In this document: piece after piece, positions 1 to 19,236 of the stretch
Position numbering within the stretch: position 1 is the stretch's first letter
How the letters are laid out: the number at the start of each line of letters is the position of its first letter
From: an uncultured virus (IMG/VR IMGVR_UViG_3300008108_000029)
Lineage: Duplodnaviria > Heunggongvirae > Uroviricota > Caudoviricetes
Strand: one strand, 5' to 3'
IMG/VR virus record: IMGVR_UViG_3300008108_000029
DNA length: 20,000 bases
Notes under the pieces: generated by a model
Database searches by the model: none
Told to the model about the DNA's origin: nothing
Seen by the model: the letters and a program-made list of their open reading frames with translations, nothing else
Position numbers and translations under genes: made by a program

Positions 1-2
1 TT

Positions 3-617: not shown

Positions 618-620
618 AAC

Positions 621-1183: not shown

Positions 1184-1229
1184 AATTTTATCTTTGCAAA
1201 AACCAAATAAAAACCAAAAAATAAACACT

Positions 1230-1775: not shown

Positions 1776-1786
1776 TTAACTTGTTA

Positions 1787-1876
1787 ATAGTCGGGGGTGT
1801 TTAACCTAAACTAATGTTAGTCGGTTTTAGCAGAGCATCCGATGGAGTAAGGAAACCATCTATAAAAACCGACTAT
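1787..1876 (+). ncRNA. Putative structured intergenic RNA element
   Basis: Perfect 11-bp inverted repeat tagtcggtttt (1818-1828) / aaaaccgacta (1865-1875) enclosing a gatgg/ccatc hairpin (1841-1860). A second atagtcgg copy at 1787-1794 can pair with the same 3' arm. Confidence 0.4.
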
Positions 1877-1896
1877 GAAATTCTAAAATTAAAAGA

Positions 1897-4819: not shown

Positions 4820-4837
4820 TGTTGATTATTATTTACA

Positions 4838-5311
4838 TTATAAATCTTTTTGTTGTTTTGTAACAACAATATTTTTAAAAATTTTATTCTTTATTAATAC
4901 AGATACTTCATTTGCTATATCTAATGCTTCTCTACCCGTTGTGTCTATTGGTAAGAAATATTTATCAGGTTTTTCATATCCTTCAACAAAATATTTTTCT
5001 CTACCTCTTATCTCACTTGTAAAAATATAGCACTCAAAAACTTCTGTCCTTTCTTTGAGTTCCTCTCTCAAATCTTTATATGGAGATATTAAAGATATAA
5101 TTGGCACAAACTCTTTTTTTTCAAGAAATAATGCAATATTGTAAGCAGTTTTTATATTATTTCTTCTTCCTGTTTCAGAGTAATCTTTGTTATTAAGAAT
5201 GTCCCTTAATTCATCTCCATCAATGTTAATTGAATTAGGAATTAATTTCAATAATTCTTTGGAAATAGTTGTTTTTCCTGCTCCTGCTTGTCCTGTTAAA
5301 TTTATAATCAT
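4838..5311 (-). CDS. cysC: Adenylyl-sulfate (APS) kinase, compact form
   Basis: P-loop LTGQAGAGKTT, IDGDELR, YSETGRRNN, SLISPY, YEKP. At 157 aa it lacks the DPKGLY lid segment of typical cellular CysC. Confidence 0.88.
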   Translation of the reverse strand: MIINLTGQAGAGKTTISKELLKLIPNSINIDGDELRDILNNKDYSETGRRNNIKTAYNIALFLEKKEFVPIISLISPYKDLREELKERTEVFECYIFTSEIRGREKYFVEGYEKPDKYFLPIDTTGREALDIANEVSVLIKNKIFKNIVVTKQQKDL

Positions 5312-5314
5312 AAT

Positions 5315-5518
5315 TTATTTTTGTTTATTAATTTTTATTTTATCCCAAATGTATTCGTATAAATAGTAAGTGAAAATTTTTATTATAAAGTCAGATATAC
5401 CTATGAATAAACCTAATGATGCCTGTCCTGTAATAAAAAAAGAAATTAAAAAAGTTATAAAAGAGGAATATATCCTGTATGTAAATGATTTAATAAAGTA
5501 AATTATATGTGTTTTCAT
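5315..5518 (-). CDS. Small membrane protein, DUF2061-like
   Basis: KSFTYRI...FFITG...KIFTYYLYEYIW pattern with two hydrophobic segments; lies directly upstream of cysC. Confidence 0.7.
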   Translation of the reverse strand: MKTHIIYFIKSFTYRIYSSFITFLISFFITGQASLGLFIGISDFIIKIFTYYLYEYIWDKIKINKQK

Positions 5519-5521
5519 TAA

Positions 5522-6265
5522 TTAAGCAGATATTCCACCCATATTAATTTCTTTTCTTAATAACAACTGCGTCCAATCAGAGTTATTATGTTCACACAAT
5601 ATACTTGTGTCAATATACTTTTGTATTCCTAACGCATCTGTATCAATAGCAAAGAATCCGTCAGGGTGCATAACTAAACCTTTTTCGTGTCTAAATTCAA
5701 ATTCATTAAGAATGTTTTTGTGCATTAAAACACATCCTAAACCACAATGAAATACTTTCATTAATTTACCATCAATATTTATTAAATCTGAACCTTCTTT
5801 CAAACTAATAGTTTCTCTTAAATCACCGAATGTTTCCATTCTTTGAGCCATCAAATGACTTTCGTATCCGAAATTAATCATATACATACCTGAAACAACT
5901 TCTAAATTATGTATCATAAGTCGTTCAATAACATCGGGAGGAGGAACTAAATCGCTTTCAAGATGAAATAAATAATCATAATTGTTAGCAATAGCATACT
6001 TTCTAATAGCATCGTGGCTCTCTGCTAATATCTTTTGTATTGAGTGATTTTTTGGCTTGATGTGTATTGCCTTAAATCCTTCTTTAATGAATCGTTTGTA
6101 ATTCTTTCTTGTTTCACTATTATCAACGATTAATACATCGTAGTAAGGATATGTAAATGTTTTTACTCTCGCTATGTATTCTTCAATACAATAGTTTTTC
6201 TTGTCAGAATGAGGAGTTCCTATCAAAACCCTTTTCTTTCTTCTAATAATGGATGGTGTTAGCAT
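5522..6265 (-). CDS. GT-A fold (GT2-like) glycosyltransferase
   Basis: VLIGTP, VLIVDNS, YDYLFHLESD (DxD variant), VVSGMY, CGLGCVLMHK, HPDGFF, IDTSILCEH. Confidence 0.8.
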   Translation of the reverse strand: MLTPSIIRRKKRVLIGTPHSDKKNYCIEEYIARVKTFTYPYYDVLIVDNSETRKNYKRFIKEGFKAIHIKPKNHSIQKILAESHDAIRKYAIANNYDYLFHLESDLVPPPDVIERLMIHNLEVVSGMYMINFGYESHLMAQRMETFGDLRETISLKEGSDLINIDGKLMKVFHCGLGCVLMHKNILNEFEFRHEKGLVMHPDGFFAIDTDALGIQKYIDTSILCEHNNSDWTQLLLRKEINMGGISA

Positions 6266-6478: not shown

Positions 6479-6724
6479 AAACTGTTATTATTTAAACGAT
6501 TTGTTTCCACAAATTGATTTTGTAAAATTAATATAATTTTTTCATTGATATTAACTATAAAAATTTATTATAATTTTTAAATTATACCTAAAAATGCCTA
6601 AAAAAACAATTAAGTTTTACAAAAACGTCATTTTGTGTCAGGATAAAAACTTTTACACCTGATATAGAGTAGATAATTTAGCAATCAGAAACAAAAATTA
6701 TTGTCAAACCTAAAAATTTAAAAA
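6479..6724. promoter_or_regulatory. Divergent AT-rich promoter region; candidate Bacteroidota-type -7 element TAATTTAG at 6674-6681 (+)
   Basis: The longest non-coding stretch, between divergent operons. TAnnTTAG is one mismatch from the TAnnTTTG consensus; there is no clear -33 element. Confidence 0.4.
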
Positions 6725-6817
6725 ATGAACAAAGAAGTAATTATCACAGCATTGTTAGCGTCAGTATTAACTGTTGCAATGATTGTAGCGAAAGAAAAAT
6801 TGATTGACAAAAAGTAA
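6725..6817 (+). CDS. 30-aa single-TM membrane peptide (absent from the ORF track)
   Basis: Hand translation: MNKEVIITALLASVLTVAMIVAKEKLIDKK*. It has an A-rich leader (tttaaaaaatg), an 18-residue hydrophobic core and a basic tail. Confidence 0.7.
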   Translation: MNKEVIITALLASVLTVAMIVAKEKLIDKK

Positions 6818-6829
6818 TCAAAAAAAAAC

Positions 6830-6887
6830 TAACTGACAGGGTTTAAAATGCTTGTTTACTTGTCGGTTAAAATTAACCAAATAAGCA
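6830..6887 (+). promoter_or_regulatory. Predicted H-type RNA pseudoknot in the leader of the candidate capsid gene
   Basis: P1 6830-6840/6859-6869 (11 bp, 2 GU) and P2 6849-6857/6879-6887 (9 bp, 1 GU), with loops of 8, 1 and 9 nt. Confidence 0.5.
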
Positions 6888-6915
6888 AAAAAAATAATAC
6901 TTAAAAATTAAGTAA

Positions 6916-7791
6916 ATGAAAAATGCAATGAACATTGACCGTTATATCGCTATGGCGGAAGAAAATTTTTCGGGGGCTAATGGCTACCAAGACCCGAATT
7001 TAGCGAATCTTGACCTTTCTTTTGAAGGTGAATTTGGTGCTGATGGAGATTATTATGATGCTGATGGAGATTATTATGATGCTGATGGCGACTATATGGA
7101 CGCTGACGGTTATTATGATGCTGCTGATGGAGATTACTCTTATGCTGCTGCTGCTCCTCGTGGCAGACGTATTATGGCTGCTCCTGCTCCTCGTAAAGTT
7201 GCTGCAAAACAACCAACTCCTTACCAAGTAAACGTATCAAACACGACAGCAGGTACTTTAACTGTTGTATTGTTTGGTCTTAACACTTATTTGTTAGACC
7301 CTAACTTTGGTTCTTCAACAGGTGTTACGGTTACTCCTGCACAGGTGAGTGTAACTTATTTAGAGTTATTAAACCAATCTGCATCTCAACCGTTTGAAAC
7401 TTCGTTAATTCGTATTCAAACTTCAACTGCTTCTCAATTAACACAAATTTTGACAGTTGTAAGTAAAGATGCTAATGGTCAATTATGTCAAATTCCTGTG
7501 ATTACGCAGTCATATTTCTCTGCTAATCAATTCCAAAGCACAATTTTGGATGTTCCATATCCTGTAAAAATTGACGGTAACACTTATGTTACTTTCCCAA
7601 TTTTAGGTAACACTACTGCAACATACACATTCTTCCCTGCGGAGAAAATCAATACTTCTCGTGTATTGGGTGGTGGTTCAGAATTACAACAATATTCTGC
7701 ACCTGCTGTTCCTGTTGCTGTTCCTATGTTTAGTGCAAGACCTGTTGGAATGAAACCTCGTCCAAAAATGATTCGTGCAGGACGTAGATAA
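6916..7791 (+). CDS. Candidate major capsid/virion protein: acidic repeat leader, basic linker and a ~150-aa beta-rich (possibly single jelly-roll) domain
   Basis: First long gene of the structural block, with codons typical of high expression (gct, cgt, ggt), its own terminator and no TM segment. The Thr/Val/Ser-rich core PYQVNVSNTT...TYTFFP has alternating beta-strand patterns. The fold is inferred, not shown. Confidence 0.55.
   Translation: MKNAMNIDRYIAMAEENFSGANGYQDPNLANLDLSFEGEFGADGDYYDADGDYYDADGDYMDADGYYDAADGDYSYAAAAPRGRRIMAAPAPRKVAAKQPTPYQVNVSNTTAGTLTVVLFGLNTYLLDPNFGSSTGVTVTPAQVSVTYLELLNQSASQPFETSLIRIQTSTASQLTQILTVVSKDANGQLCQIPVITQSYFSANQFQSTILDVPYPVKIDGNTYVTFPILGNTTATYTFFPAEKINTSRVLGGGSELQQYSAPAVPVAVPMFSARPVGMKPRPKMIRAGRR
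7039..7140 (+). repeat. 21-nt tandem repeat encoding (ADGDYYD) x ~5
   Basis: gctgatggagattattatgat is exact at 7039 and 7060 and degenerate at 7081, 7102 and 7123. Confidence 0.9.
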
Positions 7792-7813
7792 TCGTTAAAC
7801 AATAACGCAAAAG

Positions 7814-7853
7814 AAAAGGGCAGGTAATTTTATTGCCTTGCCCTTTTTTTTTT
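7814..7853 (+). terminator. Rho-independent terminator
   Basis: Stem aaaagggcaggtaat / attgcc-t-tgccctttt followed by a run of 10 T, just after the 7791 stop. Confidence 0.9.
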
Positions 7854-7887
7854 AATTAAAATATTTATAACGATTTATCTTAAACGT

Positions 7888-8430
7888 ATGAAAAACAATA
7901 CTATAAAATATATTTTTGAAAACAGACAACCTGAATTAAGAAGGTTGATTGTAAAATACGGATTGACACCTGCAAGAAGTAAAGCAGATTTGTGGAAAAA
8001 GGTTAATTACCTTATTACCAAATTCAAGCAGGAAATGTTGTTTGATATTGCTAAAATGCACCCTGATAGAGATTTGATATTATGGGCAGCGCAACAACAA
8101 CAAAAACTATCACAACCTCAACCTGTATTGCCTCAAATGCCATCAGTTTCAAGTTTTAATCAAGAAGAAAATTCAAACGCTTGTGGCTGCTCATCTGCTA
8201 ACGGAGATGACTATTCAAATATGAATTGTGGAATGAGTGCTTTTTCAGGAGATGATTTTTCAAATTGTAGTGGTAATCCTGATTGCACTTGTGATTGTAA
8301 AAAATCAAATGCAGAAGGAGAAAACCAAAAAATTGAAGTTAAAGCCACATTGGCTAACAATATGCCATTAATAGTGGTAGGTTCATTGCTTTTAGTCGGT
8401 GGACTTATTTTTTTAGGTAGTAAAGCGTAA
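7888..8430 (+). CDS. Membrane-anchored putative virion protein with a Cys-rich acidic linker and C-terminal TM
   Basis: Helical N-domain ending HPDRDLIL; SNACGCSSANGDDYSN...FSNCSG...CTCDC...SNAEG; TM MPLIVVGSLLLVGGLIFLG. Confidence 0.7.
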   Translation: MKNNTIKYIFENRQPELRRLIVKYGLTPARSKADLWKKVNYLITKFKQEMLFDIAKMHPDRDLILWAAQQQQKLSQPQPVLPQMPSVSSFNQEENSNACGCSSANGDDYSNMNCGMSAFSGDDFSNCSGNPDCTCDCKKSNAEGENQKIEVKATLANNMPLIVVGSLLLVGGLIFLGSKA

Positions 8431-8439
8431 AGCGAAAAT

Positions 8440-9258
8440 ATGATTTGGATTCAGCACGATTTCTATGAAAACTTTGTAAAAAGTATTCAAACAAAAGATA
8501 TTGATTTATCTCTTGATATTTTTCGTAGTGAATTATCAGATTTATTAACCTATAAAAGTAAAAATGTTTTTGGTTTATTTGATAAATTAAAAATAAGTTA
8601 TAGCAAGAAGGCATCTTACCAAGAACTTGTTGATATAATTATTAATCAAATTAAAACAAATCAAAAATTTGTCAGGGGATTATCTTTTTTAATTGGTGAA
8701 TCTAATGAAGTTGCCAAGAAAAACAAAAAAGAAGATTGGCAAAAACTATTGAATAACATAACAAATGGTATTAATATAGTTGCTAAATATTTTATTGATA
8801 ACCCTAAAAGAGAAAATCTTTTTAAAAGACAAATAAAAGATATGATTGGCTTGAAATCTTCTGTAACGGGAAATGATAGCCGAGAATTAGAAAAGAAAGA
8901 TAATACAGTTCTTTGGATTATTGGAATCGCTGCTGTATGTGTAGCAGGTTATTTAGTGTATAGATACTTTGATAAAAAAAGGCAAGAAAGAATGAGATTG
9001 GAAAGTTTAAATCCAAATTCATTTCCTTCATCATCACCTATGCCTGATACAAAATTAGAAGTTCCTGATTTAACTAATCAAGTAACACAACCTAAACCTA
9101 TTGACCCGTCATTTTCTGTTCCTGATGACGTATTATTGCCTGAATCACCTATTCCTACGGCTAATACGGGAGGCGTTCAAATTAATGTATCTACGACACC
9201 TACACCAACACCTACACTTACACCTACACCAATAGCACAAACACCACAATCAATATGA
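8440..9258 (+). CDS. Membrane protein with a helical N-domain, single TM and Pro/Thr-rich tail
   Basis: TM VLWIIGIAAVCVAGYLVY followed by RYFDKKR; TPTPTP repeats at the C-terminus. Confidence 0.7.
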   Translation: MIWIQHDFYENFVKSIQTKDIDLSLDIFRSELSDLLTYKSKNVFGLFDKLKISYSKKASYQELVDIIINQIKTNQKFVRGLSFLIGESNEVAKKNKKEDWQKLLNNITNGINIVAKYFIDNPKRENLFKRQIKDMIGLKSSVTGNDSRELEKKDNTVLWIIGIAAVCVAGYLVYRYFDKKRQERMRLESLNPNSFPSSSPMPDTKLEVPDLTNQVTQPKPIDPSFSVPDDVLLPESPIPTANTGGVQINVSTTPTPTPTLTPTPIAQTPQSI

Positions 9259-9569
9259 TTGAAGAAGGGAAAATAAAATCTAAATTAAAGATTAAAAAAC
9301 CTAAAAAAATTGGTGTTAAAAAAAGTATTTTGAAAAAAAGTATCCCTAAAAGAAGAAAAAAAAAGGAATACTCTGATTTTATCGGAGGAAATAGTGAGGT
9401 TGGAAAATATACAAAAGGTGCATTTTTAGGAGGATTGGTTGGGGGAGTTGGAGGATTATTAATAGGAAAAAAAATAATATTAGGAATTATAATCGGAGCA
9501 TTAGCAGGAGGTTATATATCTTACCAAATAAATAAAGAGAGTAACAAAAAATCAAATATCAAAAATTAA
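9255..9569 (+). CDS. Small basic membrane protein with glycine-zipper TM hairpin
   Basis: Lys-rich N-terminus, YSDFIG motif, then GAFLGGLVGGVGGLLIG...GIIIGALAGG. ATGA overlap with the upstream gene. Confidence 0.7.
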   Translation: MIEEGKIKSKLKIKKPKKIGVKKSILKKSIPKRRKKKEYSDFIGGNSEVGKYTKGAFLGGLVGGVGGLLIGKKIILGIIIGALAGGYISYQINKESNKKSNIKN

Positions 9570-9582
9570 AAACCCAATTATT

Positions 9583-11487
9583 ATGGAAAATAAAAATTTA
9601 GTATCAAAAGAAGAATACGAAAAAATAAAAAAACAAAAAGCAAAAGAAGATGCTGAAAGAGAGGTAATGTCCGCTAAATTAGGTGCAACTGATAATTTGT
9701 GGTCGCCACAAGAGGAGTTGCAAATATATACTTTTGATTCAGGTAAAAAACCAAGAAAAATGGTTTTAAAAAAGAAAGGAACTAAATATAACGATAATTG
9801 GGTTTCTAAAATGATGCCAATTCAGGGAAGTATGGTGTTCTATATTAATAGAGATGAAAATGGAAAACCTGTTGGTGAGCCAAAAAAATATCTACAAATA
9901 ATTACCTCTAAAGGTGTGTGGACTGATGACTATATTGACGGTGATAAACTTGAACCTTACTTCATTGATATTATTAGAAAAAAAGGTAAAGGGTATGGTG
10001 CAAGTGAACTTTTAGCAGCAAAAAAGAGATATGGAATTAAAGAAGGTGTTGAAGTTAAAGTAGAGGACTTATTAGTATCTAAATTTACAGGACTTGATGA
10101 TATTACAAAAGCAATGAATCAATATGGTGCAAATGGATATACTGATGTTAATTTACAAAATCTTGATTTAAGTGCTGATGGAGATTCAGGTATGCTTGAT
10201 TTATCAAACGCAGATGGTTTAGATGAAAGTATAGCAAACGCATTTGGAGCAGCACCAAAAAGAATAGCAAGAACGACAAGTGTTAGCGCAAAACCTAAAA
10301 GATTAGTTAGGGCATTAGCAAATCAACCTGCTATTAAATTAATTAAGTCAGGTCAATCTTGGAAAAAAGGAAATAATTTCCAAAAAGGTGCTTTACTTAC
10401 GGTAATAGGAACTACAACAATCTATAACAAAAATAATCAACCTCAAAAAGCAATTTTGTTTTCAAACAATCAAGCGTCCTTACTTGATAACAAATGGAAC
10501 AAATTATTAACTTGGAATAAGGTGGCTAAACAAACAGGTAATGCTGTTTCTATGTATGGTAAAGGTCAAGTTCCAAGATTCATAAAAGATTCAGGAACAA
10601 ATAAATGGGTTAGAAGTGGTTTTTATAATATTGACACATTTCAACCTAAAAGAGTTGTTGATACTCAAGTAAAAAGAACAAAAGATAGTAAGTTGATTAT
10701 GTTTTTAGTTTTTGCAGATGGAACTGCATCTACTTCAAACTATTGGACAAAATCAAATGATTTTTTATCAAGTTTTGATGGCGATTATTCAAATATGACT
10801 AATCAAAGTTTACTTGATGGTCTTACTGAAAACACAAGTTTATTAAACGCTGATGGAGATGAATATTCAAACTTAACAAATCAAAGTTTACTTGATGGTC
10901 TTACTGAAAACACAAGTTTTTTAGAATTTGAGGCAGGAGATTCTGATTTTGATGGAGATTCTGATTTTGATGGCGACTTTATGTTTGAAGGAGATGATTC
11001 AAATGCAGAGGGAGATGAACCTAAAAAGAAAAAAGGTGGATTTGGTGCTTGGTTGAAAAAAACTTTTTCAAGAAAAAAGAAGAAGAAATCTGCTTTAGCA
11101 ACCATTGCTGACCCTGAAACTGATGTTGTTAGTGCAAAAACTATGGTTGAGGCACACAAAGAAAGTGGAAGTAGTAAGCCATTAGGTCAATGGATTAAGT
11201 CAGATGGTGGTAAAAACTTTTTGAGTGCTTTAGCAGCAGTTGCGACAGCAGTTGTGTTAGGCAAAACTGAAAAAGGTGAAGTATCTAAAGATAGTGGAAG
11301 TGCTGATAGTAGAAGTGAGAGTGGAAGTGGAAGTGGAAGTGGAAGTGGAAGCGACACAAAAGGAAAAGATGAAGGTGAAAAAGAATTTAAAATTTTAGGT
11401 ATGTCGCCTGTTACTTTTGGTATCGTTGCAGGAGCAGTTGTTATTACTTCAATTTTTGTAGTTCCTAAATTAATTAAGAAAAAATAA
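9583..11487 (+). CDS. Large multi-segment putative virion protein with two acidic motif blocks and a C-terminal KILGM-TM anchor
   Basis: 634 aa. Acidic blocks at ~10129-10248 and ~10770-11015 separate basic domains; a GS linker precedes KILGMSPVTFGIVAGAVVITSIFVVPKLIKKK. Confidence 0.75.
   Translation: MENKNLVSKEEYEKIKKQKAKEDAEREVMSAKLGATDNLWSPQEELQIYTFDSGKKPRKMVLKKKGTKYNDNWVSKMMPIQGSMVFYINRDENGKPVGEPKKYLQIITSKGVWTDDYIDGDKLEPYFIDIIRKKGKGYGASELLAAKKRYGIKEGVEVKVEDLLVSKFTGLDDITKAMNQYGANGYTDVNLQNLDLSADGDSGMLDLSNADGLDESIANAFGAAPKRIARTTSVSAKPKRLVRALANQPAIKLIKSGQSWKKGNNFQKGALLTVIGTTTIYNKNNQPQKAILFSNNQASLLDNKWNKLLTWNKVAKQTGNAVSMYGKGQVPRFIKDSGTNKWVRSGFYNIDTFQPKRVVDTQVKRTKDSKLIMFLVFADGTASTSNYWTKSNDFLSSFDGDYSNMTNQSLLDGLTENTSLLNADGDEYSNLTNQSLLDGLTENTSFLEFEAGDSDFDGDSDFDGDFMFEGDDSNAEGDEPKKKKGGFGAWLKKTFSRKKKKKSALATIADPETDVVSAKTMVEAHKESGSSKPLGQWIKSDGGKNFLSALAAVATAVVLGKTEKGEVSKDSGSADSRSESGSGSGSGSGSDTKGKDEGEKEFKILGMSPVTFGIVAGAVVITSIFVVPKLIKKK
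10801..10980 (+). repeat. Intragenic repeats: 41-nt exact direct repeat (10801-10841, 10879-10919) and 18-nt tandem repeat (GDSDFD) from 10936
   Basis: aatcaaagtttacttgatggtcttactgaaaacacaagttt occurs twice with a 78-nt period; ggagattctgattttgat occurs twice. Confidence 0.9.
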
Positions 11488-11488
11488 T

Positions 11489-12562
11489 ATGAAAATAGAG
11501 CAAGAACAAAGCATAAGACCAATGGTTAAAACTGCACCTACCACTTTGAAATTTCAAAGACCTGTAATTGCTACGTCTGATGCTGTAAGACCTATTGCAC
11601 CATCTGCTACACCTGTTGCAAAAGCACCTGTTGCACCTGCACCTGTTGCTCCTGCACCCGTTGCACCTGCGAAATCTGCACCTGCACCTGCGAAATCTGC
11701 ACCTGCACCTGCTGCGAAATCTACACCTGCTGACACAACAGCAACAACAGGCACTAAATATAAAATTTTAAAAACAAATAAATTTAGTGAGCCACCTTTT
11801 AAAGTTGGTGATATTGTAGAGGGAACATTAGATAGCAATGGATTTCTGATTGTAAAGAGAGATTTTGAAGGAAAAAATGTTCAGTTCCAATTTGGTAAAG
11901 ATGAATTTGAACAAGTTGGTTCAACAACAACAACAACAAGTGGTTCTGCATCAGGAGAAAAAGAAGTTACTAAATCAGATTTTTGGTCGCTTAAAAATCC
12001 TTTTCACTATACTGTTATTGCAGGTGCTATAATAGGTTTTTTCTATGCTAAAAACAAAGCAAAAAACATTTTAGCATCTACTTTAATTGGAGCAGGTATT
12101 GGTGGTGGATTAGGTATTGTTGCCAATAAGTTTATGGGTAAAAATACGACATCAACAAAAAGTAGTGGAGATAAAGCAGGTTCGGGTTCGTCAGATAAAG
12201 TAACTGATGATAAACTAATTGATGCAATGATTAATAGTATGAGGCAAATGGTTGTTTCATTAGCAGTTACATTTGGTCAAGATAAAGCAAAAGCAGAGGC
12301 AGATTTTAATACAGATTTTGAAAAACAAAAGCCACAAGTAATTGCGAAAGGAAAAGAAGTTTTAGCGACTATGAAGGACAATGAAAAACAAGCAGTTTAT
12401 GAAATGATTTTGTTTGAAACTGATTTGTATTCAAAAGCAAAAACTCAAGAAGATGCTGAAAAAATTGAATCTCAACTTAATTCTAAAATTCAAGAATTAA
12501 GCACAAAATATTCAGTTGATTTGAAAGCAGCGATTGATAAATTAAAAGGTCAAAAATTCTAA
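11489..12562 (+). CDS. Membrane protein with an Ala/Pro-rich linker, small beta domain, two-TM glycine-zipper hairpin and helical C-domain
   Basis: APVAPAP/KSAPAPA repeats; FKVGDIVEG; YTVIAGAIIGFFYA...TLIGAGIGGGLGIV. Confidence 0.75.
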   Translation: MKIEQEQSIRPMVKTAPTTLKFQRPVIATSDAVRPIAPSATPVAKAPVAPAPVAPAPVAPAKSAPAPAKSAPAPAAKSTPADTTATTGTKYKILKTNKFSEPPFKVGDIVEGTLDSNGFLIVKRDFEGKNVQFQFGKDEFEQVGSTTTTTSGSASGEKEVTKSDFWSLKNPFHYTVIAGAIIGFFYAKNKAKNILASTLIGAGIGGGLGIVANKFMGKNTTSTKSSGDKAGSGSSDKVTDDKLIDAMINSMRQMVVSLAVTFGQDKAKAEADFNTDFEKQKPQVIAKGKEVLATMKDNEKQAVYEMILFETDLYSKAKTQEDAEKIESQLNSKIQELSTKYSVDLKAAIDKLKGQKF

Positions 12563-12563
12563 T

Positions 12564-13067
12564 ATGAATAAAAATCTTTTTCCAATTTACGGGATAATAG
12601 CAGGTGTAGGTTTGTCTTATCTATATATAAAAACATTAGGTAAAGATAAAAACTTAAATCTTACTAATAACTTGCTTATTGGAGCAGGTATTGGAGCAGG
12701 TATTGGCTCTTTAATTACTTTAATGTCTAATAATTCCTCTACCGAAGAAAAAAAAGAACCTAAAATAATAACCGAACAGTCATTGAAAGATTTAGCGAAT
12801 GAAACTAATTCTGCTTTGGAACTTCAGAACTATTTAGATATTATTGAAAGAGCAAAAGTAGGAGATAAAGATAAGCAAAGAATATTCAATGTTATCAACG
12901 GGGTTTTGTTAGCAAAAAAAGATAAAAAATGGGATGAGTTTGCTAATATGAAAACGAAAAAAAATATACTTTTAGGTTATAATGTTTCAGAGTATGATTT
13001 TAATGTTTTTCAAGACGTTATGGTTAATAAATTAGCAGACATTATTAGTGATGTTATAAATAAATAA
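12564..13067 (+). CDS. Membrane protein with an N-terminal two-TM glycine-zipper hairpin
   Basis: IYGIIAGVGLSYLYI...LLIGAGIGAGIGSLI, similar to the hairpin in 11489-12562. Confidence 0.75.
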   Translation: MNKNLFPIYGIIAGVGLSYLYIKTLGKDKNLNLTNNLLIGAGIGAGIGSLITLMSNNSSTEEKKEPKIITEQSLKDLANETNSALELQNYLDIIERAKVGDKDKQRIFNVINGVLLAKKDKKWDEFANMKTKKNILLGYNVSEYDFNVFQDVMVNKLADIISDVINK

Positions 13068-13646
13068 ATGGCTACAAAAGAAAAAATAGTTCAAGTAACT
13101 CAAGGTTTACCAAGTTGGGCTAAAGGAGTTATTGCAGTTGTCGCTGTTGGTGGCGTTGTTTTTATTGGATATAAGGTTTATAAATTGTTACAAGACATAA
13201 CGCAAGGTAAAGACCAACGTGATGTTATCAAAAGCGTAAAGCAAGAAATAAAACAAGAATTGGATGCAGGAAAAAATCCAAGCCATCCAATGTCCGTGTA
13301 TCGTTCTGCTGTTAATCAAATTAAATCAAATTTGGATGACTGCGAAGCAAACATTAATGATGAAACTAATGTAATCAAGTTATTAACAAAGGTTGTTAAA
13401 AACAATCTTGATTGGAAGATACTTCAGCAAGAATGGGACGTTAAAGAGGTAGAGGATTGTGCGAGTTGGACATCAACAAAGTATGAATTAGCAGAGTTGT
13501 TGCAAGACCAATTAGACCAAAAATATGTTTTCACATTGGGTAAACTCGTAGGGGAAAATTTTATTTATGACCCAATAAGAAGTGGTGAAAAATCAACATT
13601 TGATATTTTAAAAACTTACTTTAATAAAATAGGAGTTAAATTCTAA
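13068..13646 (+). CDS. N-terminally anchored membrane protein
   Basis: GLPSWAK followed by TM GVIAVVAVGGVVFIGY and KVYK, then a helical domain. Confidence 0.75.
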   Translation: MATKEKIVQVTQGLPSWAKGVIAVVAVGGVVFIGYKVYKLLQDITQGKDQRDVIKSVKQEIKQELDAGKNPSHPMSVYRSAVNQIKSNLDDCEANINDETNVIKLLTKVVKNNLDWKILQQEWDVKEVEDCASWTSTKYELAELLQDQLDQKYVFTLGKLVGENFIYDPIRSGEKSTFDILKTYFNKIGVKF

Positions 13647-13651
13647 ATATA

Positions 13652-14161
13652 ATGAAAGATAAATTAGCAGGAATACCTGATTGGGCAAAAATAGTAGGAG
13701 GTATAGCAATTATTGGTGGTGCTATTTGGGGTGCTGTCGCTATTTCAAAATTGCTTAAAGCAAGAAGAATACAAAAAGCATACGAAGAATCTCAAAAAGA
13801 TGAAGAAACAAAAGACCCAAATGTTGTTAATCCTCAAGATATAGTAACTTCAAAAGGAAAAATTGTATATGCTAAACCTAAATCAGCAGGTGCAGCAGGA
13901 TATGTAAATGTTAGGTCAAGTGCAGCAGTAGATAACACAAACTCTTGGTATAATCCAAGTAATTTTATAGGAATGGTTGTAGAAGGAAAACCTGTCGGAA
14001 AAGTTCTTGAGGGAAATATATCGGGAGAAGGTTATGTGTGGTATAAAATTACCGTAAATCCGCAACACTTACAAGAAAATAAAGAATTAGGATTAAAAGT
14101 TAATAAATCAAATACAACAGGTTACGTTAGAGAAGATAACGTAATTTTAAAAAGTGTTTAA
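13652..14161 (+). CDS. N-terminally anchored protein with an SH3b-like domain
   Basis: GIPDWAK plus TM; YVNVRSSA...IG...KVL...WYKI...GYVRED matches the bacterial SH3 (SH3_3/SH3b) pattern. Confidence 0.65.
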   Translation: MKDKLAGIPDWAKIVGGIAIIGGAIWGAVAISKLLKARRIQKAYEESQKDEETKDPNVVNPQDIVTSKGKIVYAKPKSAGAAGYVNVRSSAAVDNTNSWYNPSNFIGMVVEGKPVGKVLEGNISGEGYVWYKITVNPQHLQENKELGLKVNKSNTTGYVREDNVILKSV

Positions 14162-14227
14162 CAAATCCAAATAAAACCAAAACAAAACCAAAACCAAAAG
14201 ACCAAAATATAAACTAAAACAAAAAAA

Positions 14228-14704
14228 ATGGCACAATTAGCAAATGCAAATCTACTTGACGACAGCGTAGCAAACAGTAGTTCATTGAAAACTGAAAGAT
14301 TAAACAAAACTGCTCAAAAAGCAATCAATCCTAAACCGAGAGATTACAATGAAGAAAGAGTAGTAGAAAAAAGGAAAGAAGAATATAATAATAAGAAAGT
14401 AGTAGAACAAGAGGTTGAAATAGATGATGATTTTGAAGATGATTACGAGCAACAATCACCATCATTAATTAATTCTAATTCAAAAATTTATTCAAATACA
14501 GATAAAGAAAGTGAAGAAAAAGATAATAAAATATTAGGTATGAAACCTGTTTTATTTTATGGTCTTTTAGCATTAGGAGTAGCAGTAGGAGGATATTTTA
14601 TATATAAAAAATTTATTAAAAATAAAAAAACAATAGATGTAGCACCAAATCCAACACCAAGCGTAGATGTTCCGACACCTACAACAAATATTGGTAATGG
14701 ATAG
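14228..14704 (+). CDS. Acidic low-complexity protein with a KILGM-TM anchor
   Basis: KILGMKPVLFYGLLALGVAVGGYFIYKK; N-terminal LANANLLDDSVANS motif. Confidence 0.75.
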   Translation: MAQLANANLLDDSVANSSSLKTERLNKTAQKAINPKPRDYNEERVVEKRKEEYNNKKVVEQEVEIDDDFEDDYEQQSPSLINSNSKIYSNTDKESEEKDNKILGMKPVLFYGLLALGVAVGGYFIYKKFIKNKKTIDVAPNPTPSVDVPTPTTNIGNG

Positions 14705-14740
14705 TGTCTGCAAAATAACAACAACAAAAACAACAACAAA

Positions 14741-15586
14741 ATGGAACACAATTTAGATTTATTAAATGCAGACGGTCTTGACGAAAGCATTTCAAACACC
14801 AATGGAGGATTTAGATTTGGAAATTTAAGAGCAAGATTAAATCGTATGAACAGACCTGTAAGGGTAATAGCAAGACGAGGTGATGGCGATTTTTCAGATG
14901 CAAATGGATATGAAGATGTAAACTTAAAAAATCTTGATTTGTCTGCAAACGGAATGAATTTACAAGACCTTGATTTAGGTGCTAATGGTGATTATTCATA
15001 TTGCTGTGGTGTTGATGGAGATGATTCAAATGCTAATGGTTTTAGATTTGGAAATTTAAGAGCAAGATTAAATCGCAGAAAAAGACCTATCATAGTAAGG
15101 AGAGGAGATGGTGAAATTAATTCAGATGCCGATGGAGAAGGTTATTCTTACATTACAGTAACACCTGAACAAGCGAAGATGGCAGCAGATGTTGGTGGTA
15201 AATTATTGGCTAATATAAAAAGAAAACCTAAAACAGAACTTGAATCTAATTTAAAAGCTGCTTGTGGTCGTAAACCTTTGTTTGGTAAGTCAAAGAAGAA
15301 AAAATATCAAGAATGTGCAACTAAATTTATGGCTAATGCTGAAAAATCAAAATCTGCTGCTGCTGAAGCAATAGCAAGAGGAAAAGAAGCAGAAGCAAGA
15401 ACAGCAGAAGCAAACGCAGCAGCGAAAGCAGCAGAAGCAAAAACTTCAGAAAATAGTAGATTAGCTGCACCTGCGTCTGATAAATTTCTTGGTATGCCGA
15501 AAGCAGTAGGTATTACTGTTGTAGCAGTTGGAGGATTAGCACTACTTGTTGGTGGATACTTCTTAATTAAAAAAATGAGAAAATAA
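14741..15586 (+). CDS. Putative virion protein with alternating acidic and Arg-rich repeats and a KFLGM-TM anchor
   Basis: Two GFRFGNLRARLNR units, each preceded by an SNxNG motif; CGRKPLFG...C segment; Ala-rich helix; C-terminal TM. Confidence 0.8.
   Translation: MEHNLDLLNADGLDESISNTNGGFRFGNLRARLNRMNRPVRVIARRGDGDFSDANGYEDVNLKNLDLSANGMNLQDLDLGANGDYSYCCGVDGDDSNANGFRFGNLRARLNRRKRPIIVRRGDGEINSDADGEGYSYITVTPEQAKMAADVGGKLLANIKRKPKTELESNLKAACGRKPLFGKSKKKKYQECATKFMANAEKSKSAAAEAIARGKEAEARTAEANAAAKAAEAKTSENSRLAAPASDKFLGMPKAVGITVVAVGGLALLVGGYFLIKKMRK
14810..15075 (+). repeat. 35-nt exact direct repeat encoding FRFGNLRARLNR (14810-14844, 15041-15075)
   Basis: tttagatttggaaatttaagagcaagattaaatcg occurs twice. 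Confidence 0.92.
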
Positions 15587-15610
15587 AATAAAACCCAAAC
15601 CCAAAAAAAA

Positions 15611-16669
15611 ATGGAAGAATTAGATTTAACAAATTCAAACCTATTAGGTGATGAATTTTCAAACGCAAGAGGTGGCTTCTTTAAAAGATTAGGAGCAGGA
15701 ATAAAAAAAGCAGGTTCAGACATCAGAAAAGGTGTAAAGAAAGCAGGTTCAGACATCAAGAAAGGTGTTAAAAAAGCAGGAGAAGGAATTAAAAAAGTTA
15801 CAAAAAAATTAGGAGATAAAATCGGTAAAATTGGTAAAGATTTTAGAAATAATTTCCGTAAAATTTTAAGAAAAGGTGTTCTTCGTAAATTGAAAGGAAA
15901 TGCTCACGGTTACTCCACAAAATTATATCCTGCTATCGCAACTGAACAAGAACTAAAGAGTGGAAAAAAATACAAAGCATCTGCAATAGCAAAAGCAAAA
16001 TCAAACTACTCTAAATTAGTTTCTAAATGGAAAGATTTGGGTGGAGATGAGGCGGAATTAAGAAGTGCTATTAAAGAAGGTGGTAATAAAAGATTTTTAA
16101 AACTTCCTTTCAAATCAGCAAGTGGTAACAATGCTTATGAATTTTATTCATACTTTGCACCTGATGTAAATATTTATTATAATTCTGATGGCGAAAGTTT
16201 TACATACTTTGAAGGAACTTATAGCAATTCAGATGGCGAAACTACGCAAGAAATGCCTGAACAAAAAGAACAAACTAAAGGTATTATGGCAGTTTTTGCT
16301 TGGATTAAAGGTTTATTTTCAAAAGATAAAGGTGGAGATGAAAACCCATACGAAGCAGGAACTCCTGAATCAAAAGAGTTTGACCAAGACAAAAAAGAAG
16401 ATGCAGGTAATGAGCCTAAAGAAAGTGAAGCAGATAATGAAGTTATCAAAGAATTAGAAAAGAATAAAGATTCTGATGACACAGGTGGGGCAACTGATAA
16501 ATCAGCAGGTCAAGACACAAAAGAAGAAGAAGGCGAAAAAACTGATACAGATAAAACAGGAGATAAATTTCTTGGTATGCCAAAAGCAGTAGGAATTACT
16601 GTTGTTGCAGTAGGAGGTTTAGCACTTCTTATAGGAGGATACTTCCTAATCAAAAAAATGAGAAAATAA
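15611..16669 (+). CDS. Putative virion membrane protein with an acidic leader, 11-mer amphipathic Lys/Gly repeats and a KFLGM-TM anchor
   Basis: FSNARGG, then FFKRLGAGI and KKAGSDIRKGV/KKAGSDIKKGV/KKAGEGIKKVT/KKLGDKIGKIG. The last 35 aa are nearly identical to those of the previous gene. Confidence 0.8.
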   Translation: MEELDLTNSNLLGDEFSNARGGFFKRLGAGIKKAGSDIRKGVKKAGSDIKKGVKKAGEGIKKVTKKLGDKIGKIGKDFRNNFRKILRKGVLRKLKGNAHGYSTKLYPAIATEQELKSGKKYKASAIAKAKSNYSKLVSKWKDLGGDEAELRSAIKEGGNKRFLKLPFKSASGNNAYEFYSYFAPDVNIYYNSDGESFTYFEGTYSNSDGETTQEMPEQKEQTKGIMAVFAWIKGLFSKDKGGDENPYEAGTPESKEFDQDKKEDAGNEPKESEADNEVIKELEKNKDSDDTGGATDKSAGQDTKEEEGEKTDTDKTGDKFLGMPKAVGITVVAVGGLALLIGGYFLIKKMRK

Positions 16670-16683
16670 ATTAATTATAAATT

Positions 16684-16715
16684 AAGGTCGTTAATTTATA
16701 GCGACCTTTTTTTTT
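16684..16715 (+). terminator. Rho-independent terminator closing the structural block
   Basis: Stem aaggtcgtta / tagcgacctt followed by a T run. Confidence 0.88.
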
Positions 16716-16719
16716 AAAT

Positions 16720-16965
16720 ATGATAAACTTGTTTTATAATTTTTGTGAAAGATTTATAGCAGGAATTTATAGCATCAAACTTGAAAGTGGACTTTATTTT
16801 AATTTACCTAAAATAGCACCAATTTTCTTGTTTGCTTTAATATTTTATGCTATTGGTAATACCTTAAATATTAAAACATTAAATGAGATTTCGGTATTTT
16901 TGATGGTTGTGGTTTTTTTCGGTTTTTTTTATTATAAAATTTTCCCAAATAGATTAAATAAATGA
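16720..16965 (+). CDS. Small two-TM membrane protein
   Basis: Hydrophobic IAPIFLFALIFYAIG and ISVFLMVVVFFGFFYY segments; ATGA overlap with the next gene. Confidence 0.55.
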   Translation: MINLFYNFCERFIAGIYSIKLESGLYFNLPKIAPIFLFALIFYAIGNTLNIKTLNEISVFLMVVVFFGFFYYKIFPNRLNK

Positions 16966-18272
16966 AAGATTGGACAGTAGAATTGGCTGATGAAAATACA
17001 GGCGATTTAGTTAAAGTATATGTAACTGCTGATAGCAAAGAAGATGCTATTGATGGTGCTTGGTTTGAATTGTCAGAAGAAGGTGAAGATGTAAATAACT
17101 ATACTTTGATTGACGCTTATAGTAATTTACATTTATACGCTATCTCAAAAGATGGGAAAATTTATAGTGGTAATAATTACGAAGATATAATTTTAAACAA
17201 GCCAATTAATTTTTTCAGCAAAGACGACAGCATAAAAGGTTACATAGATAAAAAAGGTAAATTTTATGATGAAGATGGGAACTCTTTTGAAAGTGGTGGT
17301 TCAGTACATGAATACACAGATGATATTTGGTCTTTTGAAGCAAAAGTTTCTGATGTAAATTTTTATTACGAAGAATCTTGGGTAAAAAATATGTTACCTG
17401 AAAATTCTCAAATTGAATTTGTAAAAGGAGAAAATTTTAAAGTTAAGTATCGTAATGTAATAGACATTAATCCTGAAGGTATAGATGGAGGAACACCTTA
17501 TATTGAGGAAGTATCGGGAACTGTTGTAGTAGAATATTCTTTACGAGAAGATGAAGATTTAGAGATAATTGAATTAGATTTCAAAACTGATGCTGATTGG
17601 AATTTAAAAGTTTTGAGAAACAAAGGTTGTATTGCAACAACAATAGATTCATTAGAAATAAATTTCAAAAATAAAGAAGTTGAAGTTGATTTCGCAGGTG
17701 ATTCAAAAGGCGAATGGGATAGTTATGAAGAAGGTGGAGAGTTGTTTAATTACTTATCAACACCTATAACATATCAAGTTTTTAATGAAAACGAAATTGT
17801 TTTAAGAACACAAAGTTTCAATAAAGCCGTTGATTACAGAACTTTAAATGGGAAGCATTTAAAGATTGTTGCCATTGATAAAAATGGAAATTCAAAAGTT
17901 ATTGCATCAAAGGAATACGCAGATGGTGGGATTACAGGACTTGCAAGTAAAGGTTATTATGTAAAGTATGATAAGTTTCAAAAAATGTGGGTAGTATTTA
18001 AGTCAAACGGAACTCCTGTTAATGAATATATAAATAAGCACAATGCTATTGATGTTGCTGATAACTTAAATGAAAAAAACAAAATGGTTGGAAGTAATTA
18101 TGTAAATAAATACGCCAAAGGTGGTGGAGTTGAAATTCAATCTGAAATTACAAAAGAAGAACTTGAATCAAAACTTGGAAGAAAACTGAATGGTTGGAAT
18201 GACGATAGAGTTGAATATAATGGAGTTACATACGTTAAGTGTTTTCTAAAACCACATTATAAAATAGCGTAA
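16962..18272 (+). CDS. Modular hypothetical protein of five segments separated by [FY][AE]xGG motifs
   Basis: FESGG (aa 109), YEEGG (255), YADGG (319), YAKGG (384). Confidence 0.8.
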   Translation: MKDWTVELADENTGDLVKVYVTADSKEDAIDGAWFELSEEGEDVNNYTLIDAYSNLHLYAISKDGKIYSGNNYEDIILNKPINFFSKDDSIKGYIDKKGKFYDEDGNSFESGGSVHEYTDDIWSFEAKVSDVNFYYEESWVKNMLPENSQIEFVKGENFKVKYRNVIDINPEGIDGGTPYIEEVSGTVVVEYSLREDEDLEIIELDFKTDADWNLKVLRNKGCIATTIDSLEINFKNKEVEVDFAGDSKGEWDSYEEGGELFNYLSTPITYQVFNENEIVLRTQSFNKAVDYRTLNGKHLKIVAIDKNGNSKVIASKEYADGGITGLASKGYYVKYDKFQKMWVVFKSNGTPVNEYINKHNAIDVADNLNEKNKMVGSNYVNKYAKGGGVEIQSEITKEELESKLGRKLNGWNDDRVEYNGVTYVKCFLKPHYKIA

Positions 18273-19222
18273 TGAGAGTATTAACAAAAAAATATTTAGA
18301 TAATCTTCCTCAATCTTTGGTTGGGACTATTTTTGTTAATGGCAATAGAACTTGGCAAATAATTTCTTATGGAAATAATTTTAGAAGCAGTAGCGAGTAT
18401 AAAGTTTTCCACATAAAAGAAGTAGGTGGTCAAGATGAAGAATTATTTATGACACCTAACAACTTCGCTTATTCATTTTCTAATTCTTCAATAGCAGATA
18501 AAATTTCTAAATTCAAGTTTTACAAAAGTGAATACGCAGAGGGAGGATTAGTATTATCAAAGTTTTTTTCAAATACTTCAAGATTTGTAGATTATTCAGG
18601 TAAGTTTTTATATCCACCAAGAATTAAAAATAAAGTTCATCCTGATTCAATAGAAATGTTTGATGACGGGGAATATGTAGCACAGCCAAAACTAAACGGA
18701 AGTAATACATCTGTTTTTATATCAAAAAAAGAATTTGTCGCTAAAGAACGACATAATAAGTTTTTTGCAAACCCACCTAAATTTGATTTTCAATCTCTTT
18801 ATCGTGGAAACGGAAATATGTGTATTACAGGAGAATTTATGAACAAGAGTAAGAAAGACCATAACAACAAATCATTAGTTGGTTTTTGTATATGGGACAT
18901 ACTTGCTTATGACGGAAAATTACTGATAGGAAGCAACATAGAGGAGAGAATTGCTCTTTTAGAAAAACTCTATCCTGCTCAAGAAGAAATCAAATTTCAA
19001 GGATTAACATATATGTTGAAAACTGATGTTGAAAACATATACCGAGTTAATAATTTTTATGGTAAATTTGATAAGTTATATAAGACGTTATCAAAGATAG
19101 ATATGGTTGAAGGTTTAGTATTAAAACAAAAAAACGCTAAACTTCAAATGATGATAGGAGAAGAAAATAACAGTAGTTGGTCAGTAAAAGTTAGAAAACC
19201 AACTCTAAATTATAGTTTTTAA
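18272..19222 (+). CDS. ATP-dependent polynucleotide ligase-family nucleotidyltransferase domain with an N-terminal extension ending in YAEGG and no OB domain
   Basis: Motif I AQPKLNG, III ITGEF, IIIa FCIWDIL, IV EGLVLK, V SVKVRK. The stop follows 7 aa after motif V. Confidence 0.8.
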   Translation: MRVLTKKYLDNLPQSLVGTIFVNGNRTWQIISYGNNFRSSSEYKVFHIKEVGGQDEELFMTPNNFAYSFSNSSIADKISKFKFYKSEYAEGGLVLSKFFSNTSRFVDYSGKFLYPPRIKNKVHPDSIEMFDDGEYVAQPKLNGSNTSVFISKKEFVAKERHNKFFANPPKFDFQSLYRGNGNMCITGEFMNKSKKDHNNKSLVGFCIWDILAYDGKLLIGSNIEERIALLEKLYPAQEEIKFQGLTYMLKTDVENIYRVNNFYGKFDKLYKTLSKIDMVEGLVLKQKNAKLQMMIGEENNSSWSVKVRKPTLNYSF

Positions 19223-19236
19223 AAAAATAAAAAGCA

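Follow-up and report, generated by a model that had tools for sequence, protein, structure and literature searches.

What kind of particle is built from a run of thirteen small genes of which nearly all encode membrane-anchored proteins? The question is raised by a 20,000-nucleotide stretch of DNA from an uncultured virus (IMG/VR record IMGVR_UViG_3300008108_000029), hereafter the window, in which positions 6725–16669 form a compact block around a gene for a 291-residue soluble protein. We propose, with a probability of about 60%, that this block forms the centre of the gene set for virion morphogenesis in an uncultured freshwater virus that infects bacteria, is of tailless type and is probably lined by a membrane. 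Its particle appears to be built in the manner of PRD1 and STIV, not in that of the tailed phages. From gene content we infer that the membrane proteins would be parts of the virion and that the particle would be tailless.

All thirteen genes lie on the plus strand of the window, which has a G+C content of about 29%. They are tightly packed (intergenic gaps along the block of 98, 96, 9, −4, 13, 1, 1, 0, 5, 66, 36 and 24 bases), and the run closes at an intrinsic terminator at 16684–16717, where a pattern scan returned a hit at 16684–16708 (fold −14.3 kcal/mol, z −5.06). A preliminary description, made from the letters of the window, had described this architecture correctly, and its count of twelve anchored products was reproduced as well. 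Thus, by Kyte-Doolittle hydropathy (19-residue window, threshold 1.6), a hydrophobic segment is found in all 11 genes from 7888 to 16669 as against 4 of the remaining 17 open reading frames (ORFs) of the window, and the 30-residue ORF at 6725–6817 reaches a hydropathy of 2.75 over 17 residues, giving 12 of 13 genes for the block. Five anchors sit at the extreme C-terminus and are followed by basic residues, the ending ...GGYFLIKKMRK closing two neighbouring genes almost alike, and several anchored proteins carry very basic runs, with a maximum net charge of +17 in 30 residues. The remaining gene, at 6916–7791, encodes the 291-residue protein, in which the same test found no hydrophobic segment. 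It had been described as soluble, beta-rich and followed by a terminator of its own. That terminator (7809–7852) is evident in the sequence though the pattern scan missed it; it folds at −22.8 kcal/mol (z −5.42), a value equalled by 0 of 200 shuffles. When 29 window proteins were scanned with Pfam and PHROGs, no terminase, portal, capsid or tail family was matched by the block proteins, as the preliminary description had judged by eye. The sole block match over a curated cut-off was the glycine-zipper 2TM domain PF05433 in the product of 9255–9569 (27.6 bits against 24.2).

The 291-residue protein is the candidate major coat-type protein of the block. AlphaFold2 predicts a beta-sandwich core at residues ~100–250, with predicted local distance difference test (pLDDT) values of 85–95 for this block, and leaves residues 18–96 unstructured. 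On this model the fold is a jelly roll for which no specific relative is identified. The fold is assigned because the VIA-align matches are among jelly-roll proteins, which do not single out one relative: below the top row stand the grapevine fanleaf virus coat protein (6.1) and the orf virus scaffold (5.8), then the capsid proteins of CPMV, phiCjT23 and FLiP (5.6 each), PRD1 (1w8x_N, 5.0) and PM2 (2w0c_L, 4.7). Foldseek of the model against the PDB returned no match at E ≤ 0.001, and a profile of the family (alignment A1, 37 sequences) found nothing among PDB sequences. The comparison with known jelly-roll capsids suggested in the preliminary description therefore yields a jelly-roll core, with the null Foldseek result beside it. 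In A1, 50 of the 51 invariant columns fall within residues 102–265, and the conserved beta core is placed at 100–265; the N-terminal helix is also conserved and is followed by a variable acidic region of DGDY type. A word-indexed search gave 340 homologues, the largest of their contigs being 237,926 bp long; with a full HMMER profile search, 1,049 cluster representatives passed E ≤ 0.001, 553 passed 1e-10 and 120 passed 1e-30. Among 50,697 phage records there was no match, either to the protein by tblastn or to the whole window by megablast. A role as the coat is what we would predict from the model and the gene's setting.

The association of this gene with membrane proteins is not peculiar to the window. 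The jelly-roll gene and the run of anchored proteins are conserved in five other contigs, with G+C contents of 31–47%. The relatives at hand are two IMG/VR contigs, G001 (97,455 bp, CheckV completeness 84%) and G002 (102,495 bp, 53%, G+C 32%, containing locus L002); C16, of 375,071 bp and 31% G+C, from a bin labelled Bacteroidota; C131, of 148,517 bp and 40% G+C, from a genome bin; and the smaller pieces L010 and L013, also in genome bins (31% and 47% G+C). The common order is a divergent glycosyltransferase gene, the jelly-roll gene, homologues of the genes at 7888 and 8440, and the anchored-protein run. Anchored proteins make up 11 of 14 in the module of G001 against 40 of 155 in the rest of that contig, 11 of 15 against 100 of 634 in C16, and 7 of 9 against 58 of 245 in C131, and the modules of L002 and L013 have 10 of 11 and 6 of 14, respectively. 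Several of the module proteins that miss the threshold share a glycine-rich ...GGY.IYKKFIKK tail which scores just below it. The jelly-roll protein is the best conserved product of the block, with 64% identity to its G001 homologue as against 35–53% for the anchored proteins.

The family also extends beyond the main gene. At least 11 jelly-roll proteins are found in C16 (one of them with three domains), 4 in C131 and 2–3 in G001 (one N-terminally anchored), whereas the window and the overlapping locus L056 (below) have the main gene and no paralogue. Tandem forms, with two or three matched stretches, account for 14 of the 150 best family representatives. A further protein, of 574–756 residues (C16 129537–131807; G001 27826–29550), combines weak WD40/beta-propeller matches with a C-terminal domain that matches the jelly-roll profile (E 2.9e-6 in C16, 0.0074 in G001); it may be a vertex or spike protein.

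The second component is a motor. The preliminary description had proposed a search for an FtsK/HerA-type packaging ATPase as against a terminase and portal, and an ATPase of HerA/FtsK type is encoded by the window's own genome. In C16, a 278-residue P-loop protein with a weak HerA match lies ~18 kb upstream of the jelly-roll gene. It belongs to a family of 214 homologues (48–90% identity), many with precomputed PF01935 assignments, in which the Walker A and Walker B (LVLEDIN) motifs, like the sequence TNRHRDLDI, vary hardly or not at all. A scan of metagenome contigs with one family member (P0165) returned locus L056, positions 11983–15103 of which are identical (100%) to window positions 1–3121; therefore, the genome of the window itself encodes the ATPase found there. 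The gene for this 288-residue protein (L056 4240–5106) is 6,877 bases away from the first base of the window, on its upstream side, and precedes the jelly-roll gene by 14.7 kb; the product scores 27.0 bits for PF01935 (cut-off 23.2). In Foldseek, its AlphaFold2 model (pLDDT 88.5; predicted TM-score, pTM, 0.83) matched the packaging NTPase B204 of STIV/STIV2 at all of ranks 1–15 (best E 3.5e-9, TM by target 0.64–0.70), followed by the Zot N-domain (3e-7) and then by SIR2/HerA (4e-6). Among the A32/P9-type packaging ATPases that membrane-containing jelly-roll viruses use, B204 is the one with a solved structure. At the sequence level, the family profile found only HerA chains in the PDB (E 0.0044, 0.077 and 0.19), and no match was obtained among the 50,697 phage records or 72,556 plasmid records. 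The profile is present on C16, C131 and bin G005. In conservation, the ATPase gene ranks among the top two of the lineage.

Around the ATPase, L056 encodes in order a Lys-rich 339-residue protein, an acidic 171-residue protein, a 255-residue protein, a 160-residue helix-turn-helix (HTH) protein, an acidic 429-residue protein, the ATPase and an anchored 318-residue protein. The first of these (within L056 18–4237) is rich in Lys, Glu and Ala, the 171- and 429-residue proteins are very acidic, and the 160-residue protein shows a DnaA_C-like HTH at E 1.3e-4, below the cut-off. The order HTH protein, acidic protein, ATPase is kept in C16, C131 and L060, and the proteins upstream of the ATPase may be packaging accessories or DNA-condensing proteins. 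A 530-residue protein before the C16 ATPase was considered as a capsid candidate and rejected as acidic and of low complexity. The idea that the 318-residue protein (L056 5110–6066) is a membrane-anchored double jelly roll arose from repeats seen by eye and a 27-residue BLAST match (E 0.009) from its L060 homologue; it was dropped at hhalign probabilities of 0.3 (single sequence) and 0.2 (5-sequence profile). ESM Atlas models of this protein and of the 291-residue protein were poor, and nothing was gained from PDB sequence searches in which the queries were three conserved proteins of G001 and the C16 ATPase by itself.

Downstream of the 318-residue gene, about ten glycosyltransferase, FkbM/TylF-type methyltransferase and sulfotransferase genes run into the window. 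They belong to an island of ~15 kb (L056 6066–12599 and window 3–6265) that separates the ATPase cluster from the jelly-roll gene and contains GT2 and other glycosyltransferases, FkbM- and TylF-type methyltransferases, sulfotransferases and an adenosine 5′-phosphosulfate (APS) kinase. The same kinds of gene adjoin jelly-roll paralogues in C16 and C131. The particle may display sulfated or methylated glycans on its surface. The preliminary description had read CysC, glycosyltransferases, an ART and a ligase among the neighbours of the block, and Pfam agrees, assigning to the flanking genes an APS kinase, three GT2 glycosyltransferases, a sulfotransferase, an ART-PolyVal protein and an RNA/DNA ligase.

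Having described what is present, we turn to the hallmark genes of tailed phages. ORF scans of G001, C16, C131, L056 and L060 gave no match to a terminase, portal, HK97- or T4-type capsid, sheath or tube. In G001, 126 ORFs of at least 85 residues were scanned with PHROGs (19571–20350 left out) and 66 ORFs with Pfam. In C16, PHROGs covered all 129 ORFs of at least 225 residues and 50 smaller late-block ORFs, and Pfam covered 87; in C131, 74 of the 75 ORFs of at least 200 residues were scanned with PHROGs (one 1,160-residue ORF left out); and in L056 and L060 the scan took in 23 ORFs in the vicinity of the ATPase. Searched in six frames, the virus contigs gave nothing for PF03237, PF03354, PF04860 or PF05065, the only matches (a PF05065 capsid and a weak terminase) falling on other contigs of bin G004. 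A Walker-A scan of G001 and C16 gave no terminase-like P-loop protein, scans of the window and its relatives gave no tape-measure match, and C131 and C16 share no conserved large protein of terminase, portal or capsid size. Profiles can miss extremely divergent terminases, and the contigs so searched are incomplete. Within that bound, and by sequence profiles rather than fold comparison of all proteins, no HK97 capsid, terminase or portal was found in the window, in the 12 kb upstream of it or on the 97-, 148- and 375-kb contigs, and the genomic context is viral. The relatives, which keep the jelly-roll gene and the membrane-protein run and gave no hallmark match, thus support the earlier suggestion that large bacterial viruses of tailless type, probably lined by a membrane, form a lineage that has been poorly described. 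The two checks proposed with that suggestion, on fold and on motor, also turned out in its favour.

The main rival reads the same contigs as those of a very divergent tailed jumbo phage, whose terminase, portal and HK97-fold capsid are undetected or lie outside the contigs; the block would then encode internal, ejected or head-decoration proteins of the virion, and the small ATPase would not serve packaging. We regard this as unlikely, though it is the most serious of the alternatives. Much of the gene content would suit it. C16, with 649 short, phage-like ORFs, 94% coding density and uniform G+C, encodes RNA ligases, RtcB, nicotinamide phosphoribosyltransferase, phosphoribosyl pyrophosphate synthetase, thymidylate synthase, many GIY-YIG and HNH homing endonucleases and polyvalent proteins of up to 3,006 residues (LPD1, LPD11, PBECR5), together with 33 tRNAs and a tmRNA-like gene. 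Genomes of 97–375 kb and tRNA sets of this kind are typical of jumbo tailed phages, as are polyvalent proteins, homing endonucleases and genes for RNA repair and NAD salvage; fibre-, spike- and tail-like matches occur as well. Against it stand the three large contigs and the window region, which lack a hallmark match by PHROGs, Pfam and six-frame search. Furthermore, the jelly-roll proteins of C16 and C131 are 55% identical, yet the two contigs have no large terminase, portal or capsid candidate in common, and a gene that is among the two best conserved of the lineage has B204 as its best match.

Several points weigh against the tailless, membrane-lined reading and should be set out together. 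First, it is drawn from gene content, and the RNA evidence (below) consists of assembled contigs only. Second, the VIA-align Z-scores of the ATPase to B204 and to DndH-C (16.9) differ by no more than 1 unit, which the program counts as a tie, with cellular HerA (15.6), VirB4 (14.4) and FtsK (11.1) further down; because of this proximity, the packaging role is argued from size, rank and context. The ATPase profile was, in addition, not found on G001 and G002, both of which are incomplete as given above. Third, the hydropathy test has a high background in these AT-rich genomes, of 16–26%. Fourth, the relatives contain fibre- or spike-like matches (collagen/tail-fibre PHROGs, K1-lyase_C, an 811-residue beta-helix protein), a T4_gp9_10_N match at 24.4 bits, below the cut-off of 25, and a 'tail assembly' PHROG at E 3e-9. 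The fibre-, spike- and depolymerase-like proteins could be vertex spikes, yet they keep the tailed alternative alive. Last, the large contigs are all linear fragments without end repeats, and since every one of them is incomplete, hallmark genes could sit outside what was assembled.

A second alternative accepts a tailless-type virus and places its 11–12 anchored proteins elsewhere, in the cell membrane, where they would act as assembly-site organisers, in superinfection exclusion or in lysis and egress. This seems to us a shade less probable than a tailed phage. The N-terminal segments of the proteins at 13068 and 13652, which resemble signal anchors, would fit such a role, as would the many peptidoglycan hydrolases in the late block of the relatives. 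However, the run always follows directly after the jelly-roll gene, in one late operon, even in distant relatives, and its count of 9–15 proteins is far above what lysis needs. The jelly-roll protein and the anchored proteins also have motifs in common. Thus, three proteins of the block, among them the jelly-roll protein in its N-region, contain 6 copies of N-L-D-L-S-x-(D/E/N)-G in all, against 0.3 expected, and DGDxYS(N) occurs 7 times in block proteins against 0.0 expected. These motifs change in step between lineages: in C16 the NLDLS motif is altered to GNTNLDLS in the jelly-roll protein and in a 770-residue anchored protein alike, and such co-variation points to a shared partner. That the contigs represent a giant non-viral, plasmid-like or conjugative element, its HerA-type ATPase and membrane proteins forming a transfer or secretion apparatus, is very improbable in view of the missing plasmid match of the ATPase, the phage-like content of short genes at 94% coding density, the endolysin-type enzymes and fibre/depolymerase proteins, the viral listing of two relatives in IMG/VR, and the fact that no relaxase, type IV secretion system or partition set turned up, one ParB excepted.

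Transcript data bear on the start of the block. In two small lake metatranscriptome libraries from two studies, assembled contigs match the window with 0 mismatches at 6702–7217 and 7238–7730 in one and at 6703–7301 and 7355–7660 in the other. Both sets begin at 6702/6703, giving a weak hint of a transcript start near 6702 (a possible 5′ end at 6702–6724, plus strand, for the small ORF and the jelly-roll gene) and of expression of the jelly-roll gene. The hint is weak because these are contigs, not reads, and DNA can occur in RNA libraries. Outside 6702–8061 and a few short pieces, these two clean libraries gave no window contigs, which is uninformative on silence. Two further RNA runs (X18 and X20) were excluded, as they hold mostly diverged relatives with many mismatches and chimeric joints. 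At the DNA level, at least 15 runs labelled freshwater, lake water or 'fungus metagenome' contain at least half the words of the stretch, and four of these runs may be where it came from.

How a membrane-lined particle might be made from this block can be sketched, all steps past gene content, fold and co-occurrence being ones that we infer. A late transcript from near 6702 would lead to large amounts of the 291-residue jelly-roll protein, abundant because, as we propose, the terminator at 7809–7852 passes only part of the transcription. The twelve anchored proteins would enter the host cytoplasmic membrane and mark a patch destined to become the lipid layer of the particle, and the jelly-roll protein would assemble on that patch. 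The N-L-D-L-S-x-(D/E)-G motif and the acidic DGDxYS repeats would link the N-region of the jelly-roll protein with two or three of the anchored proteins. The 288-residue HerA/FtsK-type ATPase would then pump the genome into the membrane-lined shell, where strongly basic stretches in several of the anchored proteins may serve to neutralise DNA, and the ~15-kb glycosyltransferase/methyltransferase/sulfotransferase/APS-kinase island probably decorates the particle surface with modified glycans.

Among known systems, PRD1, PM2 and the Helvetiavirae are closest in build, and none of their defining capsid families was detected here. For the motor alone, the closest solved relative is B204 of STIV and STIV2 (Turriviridae). 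The sequence identity to B204 is, however, only 14–19%, and the ATPase here has ~60 extra C-terminal residues. The hosts also differ, that of the present lineage being bacterial and that of STIV archaeal, as do the genomes, which span 80 to more than 375 kb here as opposed to ~17 kb in STIV. The Tectiviridae (PRD1, PR772) and Corticoviridae (PM2) are likewise tailless with an internal membrane, but their double jelly-roll capsid family was undetected here: PF18628 (P2_N) reached no better than E 0.048 (13.8 bits against a cut-off of 25), with a paralogue in G001, and there was no such Pfam match over the cut-off. A statement in Yutin et al. (2018, PMC5894146) puts the genomes of the prokaryotic double-jelly-roll viruses found there in metagenomes at 'roughly, between 7 and 18 kb'.

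The likeness to the Helvetiavirae (SH1, P23-77) consists in a single jelly-roll core of ~160 residues, in paralogous jelly-roll proteins within one genome and in an A32-type ATPase. What defines that group is a pair of neighbouring capsid genes, each for a single jelly roll, beside the ATPase gene. No such pair is seen in the window: it contains one jelly-roll gene, and hhalign finds no similarity of profile between the family and the ATPase-adjacent 318-residue protein (probability 0.2–0.3). In C16 and C131, a jelly-roll paralogue stands beside or near the ATPase. There is neither a sequence match nor a specific fold match to the Helvetiavirae, and the genome here is many times larger. A cultured, large, tailless and membrane-containing phage is also known, Salisaeta icosahedral phage 1 (SSIP-1), whose host phylum is Bacteroidota-related. 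Its record is circular, 43,788 bp long, and lists several 'structural protein' genes. Searches of it with the jelly-roll profile A1, the ATPase profile A2 and BLASTP of all lineage proteins found nothing; its G+C content is 57% as against 29% here, and the genomes of the present lineage are 2 to more than 8 times as large.

A functional analogy, and no more than that, can be drawn to the Nucleocytoviricota. In chloroviruses, the capsid lies over an internal membrane with many membrane proteins, the packaging-type ATPase is of A32 type and glycosylation genes stand beside the capsid gene, and the present lineage combines large genomes with a comparable set: a capsid over a protein-rich membrane, as we would predict it, an A32-type ATPase and glycosylation genes by the capsid gene. 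Pfam scans of G001 and C16 matched no capsid, A32 (PF04665) or other core family of these nucleocytoplasmic large DNA viruses. Unlike in that phylum, the host is indicated to be a bacterium, by the peptidoglycan hydrolases, the intrinsic terminators and the density of genes. The late block of the relatives has SLT domains twice, Amidase_2, DUF2272 and peptidase C92. The host is most likely a member of the Bacteroidota.

Beyond the block itself, we would tentatively suggest, at somewhat less than even odds, that these contigs represent a widespread freshwater clade with genomes of ~80 to more than 375 kb, tailless membrane-lined capsids, and a new single-jelly-roll family combined with a B204/A32-type motor. 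To the same suggestion belong the tandem two- and three-domain jelly-roll forms, the sets of tRNAs, polyvalent proteins that would be injected and an island for glycosylating the capsid, which would make the clade a prokaryotic counterpart of the giant viruses of eukaryotes. To our knowledge, every large bacterial virus described so far is a tailed phage, and no description of such a lineage was found in the literature, as judged from listings and abstracts. The tailless membrane-containing bacterial viruses known to date are small, 7–18 kb according to the statement in PMC5894146 and 43.8 kb in SSIP-1. If the suggestion is true, genomes of 100–375 kb combined with a tailless build of motor, jelly roll and membrane break the assumed link of large genomes to HK97 capsid, terminase and portal. 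The clade would then present, in extant viruses, the steps between single and double jelly-roll coat proteins, so that giant-virus origins and the single-to-double transition become testable in bacteria. It would also mean that detection pipelines based on tailed-phage markers miss an abundant lake virus.

We now describe the remaining genes of the block, all on the plus strand. The 30-residue ORF at 6725–6817 would encode a single-pass membrane peptide. Behind the jelly-roll gene, 7888–8430 encodes a 180-residue, C-terminally anchored protein (segment 153–171) with homologues at the same position in G001, L002, C16 and C131, and 8440–9258 a 272-residue protein with a central anchor (segment 156–174) and 51% identity to its G001 homologue. 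The product of 9255–9569, of 104 residues, joins a very basic N-terminus, which holds the +17 run, to the glycine-zipper membrane domain. The largest product, at 9583–11487, is a 634-residue tail-anchored protein (segment 609–627) with NLDLSxDG and DGDxYSN motifs and basic runs. It is followed by a 357-residue membrane protein (11489–12562) with a Pro/Ala-rich N-terminus and central glycine-rich anchors, as judged from hydropathy and translation. Three N-terminally anchored proteins, assigned by hydropathy, come next: one of 167 residues (12564–13067; 39% identity to G001 20374–21000), one of 192 residues (13068–13646; homologue at G001 38000–38485) and one of 169 residues (13652–14161). In the last of these, an SH3b-like C-terminal domain was considered and dropped, as there is no Pfam match at E up to 1. 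The 158-residue membrane protein at 14228–14704, also assigned by hydropathy, has an acidic N-terminal half and homologues in G001 and L002. The block ends with two tail-anchored proteins of near-identical anchor. The first, of 281 residues (14741–15586), has three NLDL and three DGDxYS motifs, Arg-rich repeats and the GGYFLIKKMRK terminus mentioned above; the second, of 352 residues (15611–16669), has Lys-rich KKAG repeats and 37% identity over 407 residues to G001 23518–24717. The leaders at 14162–14227, 14705–14740 and 15587–15610 consist of A/C-rich, G-free repeats of CAAAAC type without a Shine-Dalgarno sequence, a composition consistent with translation starts in the Bacteroidota.

In four relatives, the membrane-protein run is directly followed by a gene for a protein of 232–284 residues with a HEFSH (HExxH) motif and 44–58% identity (G001 26987–27826; C16 128680–129534; C131 105555–106253; L013 8778–9587), the window having none; the 574–756-residue propeller protein comes after it. 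The HExxH protein has no Pfam, PHROG or phage-record match, and its motif makes it a candidate maturation metalloprotease.

C16 also encodes a eukaryotic-type topoisomerase IB domain and a fragment of a class I aminoacyl-tRNA synthetase. A 399-residue phrog_1362 protein is the product of a widespread actinophage accessory gene and is uninformative as to lineage. ORF calling was ATG-only, which truncates some genes. The SNF2-type helicase of G001, for example, is a 318-residue ORF from ATG (10724–11680) or a 555-residue one from GTG (L001 4621–6288), and its homologues in C16 and C131 have 557–559 residues.

Downstream of the block, a short motif, [FY]-x-x-G-G(-G), recurs at apparent domain borders (window 16962–19998; G001 loci L004/L005, 31295–37988). 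In the window it is found four times in 16962–18272, once in 18272–19222, before the ligase domain, and twice in 19237–19998. Five proteins of G001 contain 20 copies, and the whole of G001 has 32, as compared with 13.6 ± 3.8 in shuffles. They may act as linkers, or as sites where a protease cleaves packaged proteins of polyvalent type. In the RNA/DNA ligase homologue (18272–19222), an extra N-terminal stretch of ~90 residues ends in YAEGG, which suggests a precursor, or targeting of the enzyme into the particle.

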